The notes under the pieces are model-generated. The model was given only the letters and a program-made list of their open reading frames with translations. It was not told the origin of the DNA and did no database searches. Position numbers and translations under genes: made by a program. From the IMG/VR virus record IMGVR_UViG_3300032293_001631, positions 31,477 to 95,476 of that record: 64,000 bases of DNA, one strand, 5' to 3'. Below are positions 41,865-45,346 of this stretch, piece after piece (the stretch's first letter is position 1; every line of letters starts with the position of its first letter). Source of the stretch: a virus.

Positions 41865-42722
41865 ATGAAAAGAATATTATCTTTTAGTGACTTCGGTCTT
41901 TTTGAATATCACGGATTTACTTCTTCAAATATAGGTCTATTAAACGAAGCAGTTTACCTAGATCAGTTAAACAAAAGACCACATAATGAGGATGCTCTCA
42001 AAAAAATGAGATCATGTATATTTATGTTGAATGGTACTTATCCTTTCTTTTCTGGGCTACTTTCTAAATTATTGATAAGAGAAAACAAAAGACTTCCTTA
42101 TAGAACAATGGCAACTGACGGCGTTAGTATCCACTACGATCCGGACTATGTTTTATCTAAAAGCGATGACGAAATAATATGGGTAATTGCACATGAGGTT
42201 TTACACAATTCTTTATTCCATTTCTTAAGATGCCCTAAGGATAATGATAAGGCATTAATTTGGAACTTTGCTACAGATTATGCACTTAACCAGCTTTTAA
42301 CCCCTGTTGATGAATCTAGCGGTAAACCTAAACCTGCAGCAAAAGGAGGTATAGGAAAAATGCCAGAGGGATCTTTATATCCAGGATGTGGCGTGGTTCC
42401 TTATGATACAGAATTTGTTAACAGAACAGCGGAATGGATATTCGATAAATTAATTGCAAACGGTTTTAATCCAAATAGAAAAAAAGAGGATGGAACTAAA
42501 ACTCCTCCTCCACCTCCTCCACCTCCGATACCACCTAAAGTTGGCGATATTATATTTGATCCTAATAATGATTCATATGGAATAATTAAATCCATTGATG
42601 AAGCAAATGGGGAGGTCGATTATACGCCTATTCCTAAAAGCAAGGTTCCTGAATATATGAAAAGATTAAGGGCTGGAGAAAATGTTTTAGACGACGATGT
42701 CGAGAAGGAACTAGATTTTTAG
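41865..42722 (+). CDS. Zn metallopeptidase, DUF2201 N-terminal domain type, with CTS-like N-terminus
   Basis: MATDG, IAHEVLHNSLFH (HExxH...H), WNFATDYALN; poly-Pro linker then a KOW-like tail. Confidence 0.85.
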   Translation: MKRILSFSDFGLFEYHGFTSSNIGLLNEAVYLDQLNKRPHNEDALKKMRSCIFMLNGTYPFFSGLLSKLLIRENKRLPYRTMATDGVSIHYDPDYVLSKSDDEIIWVIAHEVLHNSLFHFLRCPKDNDKALIWNFATDYALNQLLTPVDESSGKPKPAAKGGIGKMPEGSLYPGCGVVPYDTEFVNRTAEWIFDKLIANGFNPNRKKEDGTKTPPPPPPPPIPPKVGDIIFDPNNDSYGIIKSIDEANGEVDYTPIPKSKVPEYMKRLRAGENVLDDDVEKELDF

Positions 42723-42744
42723 AAAAAATTAATATTAAAACAGA

Positions 42745-43713
42745 ATGAAAGCTAGAATAACAGATATTAGAATACAGCAGCCAAAAGAGGAAGGCCAGGG
42801 TGGAAGCGGAAGCGGAAGCGGAGGTGGAGGTGGAATCCCTGAAAATGTTGACCAATGGGTTCCTGAAGACGATATTCCAGAAAGAAGCGACGATGGTACA
42901 ATAGTTGGGGACGATTTTGATATAGAAGGTCCTATAGGGCCACAGTCTGAAAATCCAGGCGCAGTAATGAGAGCGGGAGAGCTTGGCGATCTTGGAGGAA
43001 GACATGGTCTGGATGGAGAAGCTCTTGCTAAAGAATGGGAAGATAAAACAAGAATAGCTAGAAGTACCCCGGGAAAACTTCCTGCTTCTTTAAAGAGAGC
43101 ATTAGATAAACTAAATAGACCTGCAATAGATTGGAAGTCTGAATTAGCTAAGTTTATAGACGAGGCAATATCAAAATCTAAATATACACTACCCGCTAGA
43201 AGATTCCTAGGAACTGGAAAAGCTCAGTATGGGTATAAAAGATATAAAGAGGAATTTGAAAACATAGTTATTGCTATAGATACTTCTGGATCGATAAGCA
43301 AAGAAATGATTGAGCAATTCTTAGGAGAAGTTCGAGGAATAACTCAGGCTTACAACCCTCGAAAAACTGTTATATTATATTGTGACACCCAAGTTTATGC
43401 ACCAGATATATTAGAGCCTGGGGATTCACCAGATTACTCTAAAATAGCTGGAGGTGGAGGAACTAATTTTTGGCCTCCTTTTAAATGGGTACAACAGGAG
43501 CTAATAGATAAAGGTGAGAAACCTACTGTATTCATTTACTTTACTGACGGATTTGCAACTTTCCCTAGTGTGAATGATTATGACATATCAACTTATGATA
43601 ATAGATGTATATGGGTTTTCCTTTCGTTCAATGACGAGCCTTTTGGGACACCACAGCCTTTTGGAGAAAGAATAGATATTATACTTGCCAACAAGGAAGT
43701 AAAAAGAATATAA
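42745..43713 (+). CDS. vWA domain protein, DUF2201 C-terminal type
   Basis: IDWKSEL, AIDTSGSIS (MIDAS), GGGGTNF, YFTDG; Gly/Ser linker at the N-terminus. Confidence 0.88.
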   Translation: MKARITDIRIQQPKEEGQGGSGSGSGGGGGIPENVDQWVPEDDIPERSDDGTIVGDDFDIEGPIGPQSENPGAVMRAGELGDLGGRHGLDGEALAKEWEDKTRIARSTPGKLPASLKRALDKLNRPAIDWKSELAKFIDEAISKSKYTLPARRFLGTGKAQYGYKRYKEEFENIVIAIDTSGSISKEMIEQFLGEVRGITQAYNPRKTVILYCDTQVYAPDILEPGDSPDYSKIAGGGGTNFWPPFKWVQQELIDKGEKPTVFIYFTDGFATFPSVNDYDISTYDNRCIWVFLSFNDEPFGTPQPFGERIDIILANKEVKRI

Positions 43714-43718
43714 AAATA

Positions 43719-43726
43719 GATATATA
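43719..43726 (+). promoter_or_regulatory. GATATATA late-type promoter motif upstream of the AAA+ ATPase
   Basis: Exact motif 15 nt before ATG 43742. Confidence 0.65.
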
Positions 43727-43741
43727 AAATAAAAACTCGAA

Positions 43742-45346
43742 ATGGGGAAAAGAATTTATAACTTTAATCAATTTGTCAATGAATCTTATGTAAATGAAGG
43801 CTTCTTCTCTGATTTAGGAAGAAAGGTTTCTGCATGGGCTAAGAATCTATACAATGCGGTTAAATCCGGATTAATTAGTATTATATCATCAGGTCCTAAA
43901 CAAGGAACACCTAGGGTATCTCTTTTTGATGATTCTAAAAGCGAATCTATCCTAAATCAAGTTAACAATTTCTATAGAGGCACTGAATATTATAGAATGA
44001 ACAATCTTCAAATGCCTGAAACATTAGAAGAAAGTTATCTTGCAGAAGACGCAGTCCCTTTAGAATATCCAATTGCAGACGATGTCCCTAACTACTCCGA
44101 ACAAGAGATCAAGGATAACATCAAAAGAAATATGAGAGACATATTTAGAGTTGCTGATGAAATGGATGCTGCAAAAGAATCTGGAGCTTCTGAAGACAAG
44201 GTGGATGATATCTATAGGGGAATATTAGACGTTAAACCTATCTTTATATACGGAGCACCTGGTATCGGTAAAACACAGATCGTTGCTCAAGTATGTGATG
44301 AATTAGGTAAAGAGTTATACGGACATAAACTTTCTCTAGTTAATGTTGATGGAGAAAATGCTGAACCGGTTGACTTTGCTGGTGTACCTAGTGTAGTTGA
44401 TTTGGAAGCTCCTTCTAGCAAAAACCCACTAGGGAGGGGCGTTACCAGATCTAATATTAATGCTGATATCCTTCCTTATGACAATGGTAGAAATGGTAAA
44501 GGCGGTATCATCTTTATCGATGAGTTAAACCGAATGCCAGAAGAGGTTATTAAAATATTTATGAAGCTTGCTCAATCAAGAAGAGTTGGTAACAATTATA
44601 AAATTCCTTCTAGATGGTACATCGTTGCAGCAGGTAACAGAAAAGAGGATGATCCTAGAGGAGGTATTAGAGAGCTTGGTACTGCTCTTAGAGACAGATT
44701 CGAGGCAGTTAACTTTGTTCCAACTGTAGAAGGATTTAGAAAATACGTAGAAGGAAGCAGATATAAAGATGTGGTTCTTCCTGAACTATTAGATTTCCTT
44801 GAATTCCAAAGTGAATTCTTCCACAATTTAGATCCAGATTTAAGGAAAACTAAATATCCAACTCCTAGAGCATGGGTAGATGCTTCAAACTCATTAAAAA
44901 GAGCAGTAAGAGAATTAGAGAGTAAGGGAATTACTACGGTACCTGAATCTTTAATCAGAAGAGAGTTTTCTAAAAACGTTGGTAACGATGCAACAGCAGC
45001 ATTCTTAGTATTCTATAACGTTGCTAAGGAAGTACCAGTAAAAGAATTAGATTTAGTTTACACTGATCCTGAAAGAGCTCCTAAAGCAAAACCAGGAAGA
45101 CCAGATTACAATTATGCTCTAGCAGCTGCTATAATTAGAAAGAGTCTTAAAATGAAACTTACATCTAAAGAAGTTTGCAACTTTATGAAATGGTTATCTA
45201 CAAACGTGGAACCAGAAGAGGGAGGAGCTTTCTTATCTTACTTTGTCAACAGCAATATGTACATTACTAAAGACCAAGATTCTGTTGCATGTGTAGGTCC
45301 TTTAGCTGCTAAATGGAAAGAGGATTTGCCTGGTATTAATATCTAA
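43742..45346 (+). CDS. MoxR/AAA_5-type AAA+ ATPase with CTS-like N-terminal extension
   Basis: Walker A GAPGIGKT, Walker B IIFIDE, sensor AAGN, Arg finger ALRDRF, TPRAW. Confidence 0.9.
   Translation: MGKRIYNFNQFVNESYVNEGFFSDLGRKVSAWAKNLYNAVKSGLISIISSGPKQGTPRVSLFDDSKSESILNQVNNFYRGTEYYRMNNLQMPETLEESYLAEDAVPLEYPIADDVPNYSEQEIKDNIKRNMRDIFRVADEMDAAKESGASEDKVDDIYRGILDVKPIFIYGAPGIGKTQIVAQVCDELGKELYGHKLSLVNVDGENAEPVDFAGVPSVVDLEAPSSKNPLGRGVTRSNINADILPYDNGRNGKGGIIFIDELNRMPEEVIKIFMKLAQSRRVGNNYKIPSRWYIVAAGNRKEDDPRGGIRELGTALRDRFEAVNFVPTVEGFRKYVEGSRYKDVVLPELLDFLEFQSEFFHNLDPDLRKTKYPTPRAWVDASNSLKRAVRELESKGITTVPESLIRREFSKNVGNDATAAFLVFYNVAKEVPVKELDLVYTDPERAPKAKPGRPDYNYALAAAIIRKSLKMKLTSKEVCNFMKWLSTNVEPEEGGAFLSYFVNSNMYITKDQDSVACVGPLAAKWKEDLPGINI

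Follow-up and report, generated by a model that had tools for sequence, protein, structure and literature searches.

A derived form of a phage chaperone/protease module, in which a metallopeptidase-vWA protein is encoded as two genes and two of three proteins carry leaders resembling a capsid targeting sequence (CTS), is described here from a 64,000-nucleotide stretch of viral DNA (the window). The window comes from a linear IMG/VR virus contig of 95,476 b and 34% GC (IMGVR_UViG_3300032293_001631), where it takes up bases 31477-95476. Judged from sequence comparison, its three adjacent genes for a zinc peptidase, a vWA protein and an AAA+ ATPase represent the MoxR AAA+ plus metallopeptidase-vWA module of jumbo phages in a derived state. 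The pair itself is already known; the stably split, leader-tagged form is a variant of it. The explanation favoured for it, to which a probability of about 0.45 is assigned, combines a split module, membership of a virion regulon, loading into the head by the leaders, and proteolysis in the head or in the host.

The peptidase half (285 amino acids) is encoded at 41865..42722, the vWA half (322 amino acids, with neither a leader nor an upstream box) at 42745..43713, and an AAA_5/MoxR-like ATPase (534 amino acids) at 43742..45346, all on the + strand. The ATPase gene starts 28 nt past the vWA stop codon. These assignments come from the list of open reading frames (ORFs), from Pfam and PHROG profiles and, for the vWA protein and the ATPase, also from a complex model and a single-chain model, respectively. 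An earlier note on this DNA had recognized an HExxH peptidase, a vWA protein with a metal ion-dependent adhesion site (MIDAS) and an AAA+ ATPase side by side, and the ORFs and profile matches agree with it. The peptidase matches PF13203 (DUF2201_N) over profile positions 10-134 with 54.6 bits (cut-off 23.2). Its active-site motif HEVLH lies at residues 110-114 (42192-42206, + strand), and the clade alignment shows no variation at H110, E111 and H114. The vWA protein takes up the same profile at positions 203-257 and continues into PF09967 (vWA; 68.7 bits, cut-off 26.4), the C-terminal part of the DUF2201_N domain occupying residues 67-156 and the vWA domain residues 174-312. The MIDAS comprises DTSGS (43279-43293) together with T240 and D268; D179-x-S181-x-S183 and D268 are invariant, and 90% or more of the rows of the clade alignment have T240. 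A single family of 394 positions, PHROG 1314, is divided between the two proteins, with positions 9-162 in the peptidase and 146-390 in the vWA protein. The ATPase matches PHROG 1297 and PF07728 (AAA_5; 35 bits, cut-off 22). Beyond a conserved N-terminal extension, which reaches to about residue 85 and is followed by an acidic linker, it holds a Walker A motif (GAPGIGKT, 44252-44275, + strand) and a Walker B motif (IIFIDELNR, with DE260-261 at 44519-44524, + strand). It also conserves AAGN (N299, sensor 1), ALRDRF (Arg finger) and PTPRAW (sensor 2).

Scans of the trio against NCBIfam and PADLOC gave nothing at the curated cut-offs and nothing outstanding, and blastn against the phage collection returned zero matches. 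In profile searches of PDB sequences, the vWA chain found no match, the peptidase a marginal one to BepA only (E about 0.4), and the ATPase generic Walker-region matches only. The ATPase model, with a predicted local distance difference test score (pLDDT) of 64.6, retrieved only generic AAA+ proteins with Foldseek (TM-scores 0.14-0.27). By structural alignment it was superposed on the MoxR-family protein CHU_0153 (2r44) with a Z of 9.8 and a root-mean-square deviation of 4.5 over 203 aligned residues, and on ChlI/BchI with Z of 9.5-9.6; these and 2r44 gave the longest alignments.

The peptidase and vWA ORFs stand in different frames, separated by a gap of 22 nt, and stop codons lie just 5' of the vWA ATG in its own frame. 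The break falls inside DUF2201_N, between PF13203 positions 134 and 203 (about position 146-162 of PHROG 1314). In the related set of 13 viral contigs, with ATPases 50-98% identical, every member has separate peptidase and vWA genes in the order peptidase-vWA-ATPase, together with boxes and leaders. The junction is free of indels across independent runs of lake metagenome DNA, where the only indels are an in-frame one of 6 nt in the Gly-rich run and one of 1 nt between genes. Stand-alone peptidases of 227-292 amino acids formed about 70 clusters in a database search, down to about 42% identity and on contigs of up to 347 kb; catalytic residues are all kept across them, and beyond them there is a sharp step to fused proteins of 396-482 amino acids. 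In the outgroups LR756500, cyanophage S-TIM61, N4-like LUZ7 and PA5oct, peptidase and vWA form one ORF, which lies 3' of the ATPase gene (directly, or a few genes apart in LUZ7 and PA5oct). The adjacency to an AAA_5/MoxR-like ATPase is also found in the outgroups. The unusual splitting of a normally fused protein, to which the earlier note had drawn attention, is borne out by the related contigs, the clusters and the fused outgroups, and the split is taken to be real, old and stably kept. A frameshift or assembly error was considered as its origin and is ruled out by the frames and upstream stops, the 13 related loci and the independent runs.

Variant arrangements were also seen. On a 206-kb contig of a relative (L003:7973-9967), two tandem vWA genes follow the peptidase gene; both start with MKAKIT, and the first is the more diverged. 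The fused and tagged homologue of the 462-kb phage LR756500 (L030:6213-7688) has a linker with two CxxCxGxG motifs around a long Gly-Gln repeat, and the Pro-rich/beta-domain arrangement of the clade is absent from it.

In the clade, the peptidase carries a conserved Pro-rich linker (about residues 214-224) and a conserved small beta domain (residues 226-265, 42540-42659) with key positions that are clade-invariant. The vWA protein begins with a conserved N-peptide (MKARITDIRIQ, residues 1-13), which is followed by a Gly/Ser run. Both tails had been singled out in the earlier note as a possible docking interface, and modelling of the complex speaks for it. The peptidase alone folds poorly (pLDDT 56), its small beta domain being modelled as three short strands. 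The complex of the two chains reached an ipSAE of 0.70 (0.79, 0.69 and 0.70 in the runs), against 0.00 for the best of three controls, with at least 75% contact agreement among runs and a partner pLDDT of at least 71. Of 80 solved complexes, 58 came up to the ipSAE mark, as did 2 of 110 mismatched pairs; these counts are rough, since own alignments were used. The pass partly reflects family likeness, because the chains are halves of a normally one-chain family. Two interfaces are predicted. One joins peptidase residues 58-148 to vWA residues 67-123, which pack onto the peptidase core with its HExxH helix and invariant TMATDG strand. In the other, a strand of the vWA chain (residues 2-11) is paired with two segments of the small beta domain of the peptidase, residues 228-232 and 249-252. 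The model thus indicates that the two chains reassemble and that the vWA chain provides the last part of the peptidase domain, because its residues 67-123 pack onto the peptidase core; the peptidase tail and the vWA N-peptide are likewise predicted to form a docking interface. A separate observation concerns the Gly-rich vWA residues 67-83 (42943-42993), which run along the TMATDG edge strand beside the HExxH helix in the complex model. A substrate or an inhibitory propeptide would lie in a similar way, and self-processing of the linker is possible.

The leaders of the peptidase (MKRILSFSDFGLFE, residues 1-14) and the ATPase (MGKRIYNFNQFVNE, residues 1-14) resemble the T4 CTS, MKTYQEFIAE (PMC8442874), and end in a hydrophobic-x-Glu site. 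Further sites follow, LNE at residues 26-28 of the peptidase and VNE at residues 17-19 of the ATPase. The clade consensus is M-K/R-x-I-x-x-F-x-E/D-F-x-x-E. The leader is near-invariant among the aligned ATPases and, with hardly an exception, among the split-type peptidases of the clusters mentioned above, and the residues F/Y, F and E are kept at the protein level while the DNA varies. The CTS-like leaders on these two proteins, reported in the earlier note, are therefore a near-invariant property of the clade. Distant fused homologues lack the leader. A survey for untagged fused forms among close relatives found none, and the nearest fused homologue, that of LR756500, is itself tagged: it starts with MKYIKSYENFIFE, and its neighbours start with MKYIQTYKDFL(L/I)E. 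The tag is therefore older than the split. Tags and boxes were counted in G001, an 85%-complete relative with 336 ORFs, alongside G000. In G001, 33 ORFs (about 10%) are tagged at the N-terminus, compared with an internal rate of 0.5% per stretch of comparable length. The tagged proteins are mostly ORFans, and two are encoded directly after the capsid gene; a Pfam scan of the other tagged proteins gave no families. Three of five related records have a gp21-type prohead protease that passes the Pfam cut-off. That of G001 matches PHROG 207, is encoded beside the capsid gene and has cyanophage gp21 as a relative. As a separate observation in G001 (L017:15653, L018:4290 and L018:315), the putative portal and a 176-residue head-module protein have the N-terminal motif GYNP(I/V)(Y/F)E in common, and the capsid protein has ...EIYE...PIIE at its N-terminus. 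Head proteins thus begin repeatedly with hydrophobic-x-Glu sites.

The box GATATATA occurs before the peptidase gene and again before the ATPase gene, as the earlier note had stated, and the vWA gene has no such box upstream. The first copy (41839..41846, + strand) lies 18 nt 5' of the peptidase ATG and overlaps the stop codon of the upstream gene; the second (43719..43726, + strand) lies 15 nt 5' of the ATPase ATG. The positions of both are conserved in the related loci. The window holds 15 copies, 14 of them on the + strand, about twofold over the 7.9 expected from shuffles. In G000 and G001 together, 60 copies lie within 60 nt 5' of a same-strand start, at a spacing of 4-8 or 12-23 nt. An A follows at 5 nt past the box in 47 of the 60, and no conserved positions that could form an upstream element or a -35 partner were found among them. 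In G001 the box stands ahead of the genes for the head protease, the putative portal and fibres, and of many tagged genes. It accompanies 21 of 33 tagged and 25 of 303 untagged ORFs in this genome (p = 8e-13), and 5 of 7 tagged and 7 of 88 untagged ORFs in G000 (p = 2.5e-4). The box is a candidate single-element, late-type promoter. Since it is common to head, portal and fibre genes, the trio is taken to belong to the virion-gene regulon, though it lies among replication genes, and its late expression is plausible. A single RNA run contained a 325-nt contig inside the ATPase gene (43842-44166) and a 45-nt piece; the library may contain DNA, so these do not establish transcription, its start sites or its timing.

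Other features of the upstream regions were observed. In the window and G001, 11 boxes end exactly 4 nt before the ATG, where a transcription start 5 nt after the box would give leaderless mRNAs. In a lake variant (run X2), an 18-nt insertion at window position 41835, GAGGATATATAGATTAAT, duplicates the box before the peptidase gene. A second motif, GAAAC-N17-19-TAWAA, lies 5-38 nt 5' of ssb, a small Hc1-like gene, polB, nrdA and the topoisomerase II gene. It spans window positions 32913-57800, e.g., 5' of 32979, 46536, 49432, 52548 and 57807, and all 13 copies in the genome are on the + strand. This motif may define an early or middle promoter class of its own, apart from GATATATA.

The source of the window is a fragment of a T4-related jumbo phage. 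Near-identical DNA was found by a sequencing-run search in lake-water and freshwater metagenomes of 18 studies. The major capsid protein (MCP) of a relative has 39-43% identity to capsid proteins of Lak megaphage and LR756500, and also matches those of Tenacibaculum, Chryseobacterium, Flavobacterium and Sphingomonas jumbo phages. From these MCP relatives and the missing Shine-Dalgarno sites, the hosts are probably freshwater Bacteroidota. No cultured model for the clade was found. The gene directly upstream of the trio (39829-41847), whose stop codon overlaps the first box, encodes a protein of 672 amino acids and holds this place in all relatives; its C-terminus has a weak nicotinamide-nucleotide adenylyltransferase/cytidylyltransferase-like domain, below the cut-offs. 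Outside the window, on its upstream side, the virion module is preceded by a long series of genes in one orientation (C1:3222-16945).

In the favoured explanation, the split peptidase and vWA chains reassemble as the model indicates, the vWA N-terminal strand being added to the clade-specific beta domain of the peptidase. One GATATATA box would drive the peptidase gene together with the virion genes, the vWA gene being read on the same transcript, and another would do so for the ATPase gene. The T4-CTS-like leaders would bring peptidase and ATPase to the prohead core, the vWA chain entering as a passenger of the peptidase, and a gp21-type protease would cut after LFE/VNE. The ATPase would then pull proteins held at the MIDAS site of the vWA chain and the peptidase would cut them, either during head maturation or on host proteins after ejection with the DNA. 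This pulling and cutting, which we infer, is the weakest step. The split heterodimer and the common box have good support. Head loading of the trio is plausible, at about even odds, and ejection followed by action on host targets is speculative. A specific form of the latter, in which heterodimer and ATPase are loaded into the head, trimmed, ejected and reassembled in the new cell to dismantle host proteins such as defence factors, is considered unlikely.

Several points weigh against the favoured explanation. The trio lies between helicase/primase and polymerase (polB)/ribonucleotide reductase (RNR) genes, which is a replication module, and the homologous pair of N4-like phages (gp24/gp25) is found in a replication module as well, adjoining helicase and DNA polymerase. 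The window's own contig, about 33% complete according to CheckV, has no head genes and no gp21-family protease, which is known from relatives only. The proteins of the trio are acidic (pI 4.8-5.5), unlike the basic internal proteins of T4. The fold of the ATPase does not single out MoxR, the Z values being tied with those of SPATA5, p97, dynein and RFC (9.3-10.1). Among cultured phages, the Tenacibaculum phages PTm5 and pT24, relatives by MCP and protease, are without the ATPase, and the head region of PTm5 has neither tags nor the box near its head genes. Particle data are two-sided. The ATPase of PA5oct, 27.5% identical to this one over 280 amino acids, is flagged as detected by electrospray ionization tandem mass spectrometry (ESI-MS/MS) in its GenBank record, and the authors class some detected enzymes as 'virion-unrelated'. 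Particles of Staphylococcus phage DC4 were found to contain an AAA ATPase whose gene adjoins one for a metallopeptidase (PMC10638138), a likeness by description, and the authors ask for confirmation of the detection. The idea of the earlier note that the trio is late-expressed and capsid-targeted hence stands in part: the box common to head and tail genes, the association of tags with boxes, the likeness of the leaders to the T4 CTS and the gp21-type protease of relatives speak for it, and the replication-module position and the acidic proteins against it.

These points lend themselves to other explanations. The trio may act as a late chaperone/protease of virion assembly in the cytoplasm or on nascent heads, tails or fibres, without being packaged, the leader acting in docking or regulation, either towards assembly intermediates or in building the machine itself. 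Such a role was proposed for the fused pair by Iyer et al. (PMC7824862), and it fits late expression without any injection, the sharing of the box with structural genes and the acidic proteins; traces in particle preparations would account for the PA5oct and DC4 detections. However, the leader occurs on roughly a tenth of ORFs, mostly small ORFans without a link to assembly, and it is close to a peptide known to load T4 heads; this explanation is held to be somewhat improbable. The position of the trio argues for a third role, that of an intracellular chaperone of the replication phase or of metabolism, which would activate or remodel a phage or host enzyme, e.g., a metalloenzyme as in NorQ/NorD or CbbQ/CbbO, with leader and box unrelated to the capsid. 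The N4-like pair shares this kind of neighbourhood, the S-TIM61 pair adjoins Hsp20 and ThyX, and the outgroup proteins of both are untagged. This role is nevertheless judged improbable: the flanking replication genes use GAAAC-N17-19-TAWAA while the trio has the box of head and fibre genes, the leader is a near-invariant, clade-specific addition, and tags and boxes are strongly associated.

A last explanation would attribute the split to an artefact or to recent pseudogenisation, and the likeness of the leaders to chance or to a translation-initiation bias of AT-rich starts. The 34% GC of the genome, the A/T-rich first codons and the roughly twofold excess of the box in the window (15 vs 7.9) are compatible with it. 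It is largely refuted and very remote, as some 70 clusters, reaching down to about 42% identity, show the split and have intact catalytic residues, the junction is identical in independent runs, the leader is conserved as protein despite changes in the DNA, and the box shows position and strand bias.

If the leaders do load heads, as the favoured explanation holds, the clade would carry some 10% of its proteome in the head, with a three-part ATP-driven protease machine as part of the load, and the principle of the T4 internal proteins would extend to large enzymes. The MoxR/peptidase-vWA pair, of unknown function and present in hundreds of phages, would gain a testable place of action. If the module were also ejected, it would be the first enzyme machine of its class delivered as phage capsid cargo. 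The conserved split itself offers a natural two-chain version for studying the peptidase-vWA fit.

The closest known system is the MoxR plus metallopeptidase-vWA pair described in group 2.2 (T4-related) jumbo phages by Iyer et al. in 2021, who proposed for it a role in virion assembly and structural-protein processing and cited a MoxR-vWA system needed for tail development in Acidianus two-tailed virus (PMC7824862). In families, this pair corresponds to PHROG 1297 and PHROG 1314, or AAA_5 and DUF2201_N/DUF2201, as in PA5oct (EST35_0335/0340), N4-like phages (gp24/gp25) and S-TIM61. The trio agrees with it in its three domains, in having the genes side by side and in the intact state of the HExxH, MIDAS and Walker motifs. 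It differs in that the peptidase-vWA protein is made from two genes, split in DUF2201_N, with the order peptidase, vWA, ATPase, whereas the ATPase comes first in the known pair. The linker is replaced by a Pro-rich stretch and the small beta domain, leaders are present on peptidase and ATPase, the ATPase has an extension of about 100 amino acids, and the peptidase and ATPase genes each have their own GATATATA box. The leaders find their counterpart in the CTS on the T4 internal proteins IPI-III, which is removed by the gp21 prohead protease. Both are short N-peptides of the form aromatic-x-(E/D/Q)-F-hydrophobic-x-E found on many unrelated proteins, and a gp21-family protease is present in the clade. 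The clade consensus is longer, however, and the leader is carried by large acidic enzymes as well as small ORFans, on about 10% of ORFs; the T4 peptide is known to load cargo, a function predicted for the clade leader. With the cellular MoxR-vWA pairs (RavA/ViaA, CbbQ/CbbO, NorQ/NorD), which are without a zinc peptidase, the trio shares neighbouring genes for an AAA+ ATPase and a MIDAS vWA partner, and with Mg-chelatase ChlI/BchI the structural likeness of the ATPase model noted above.

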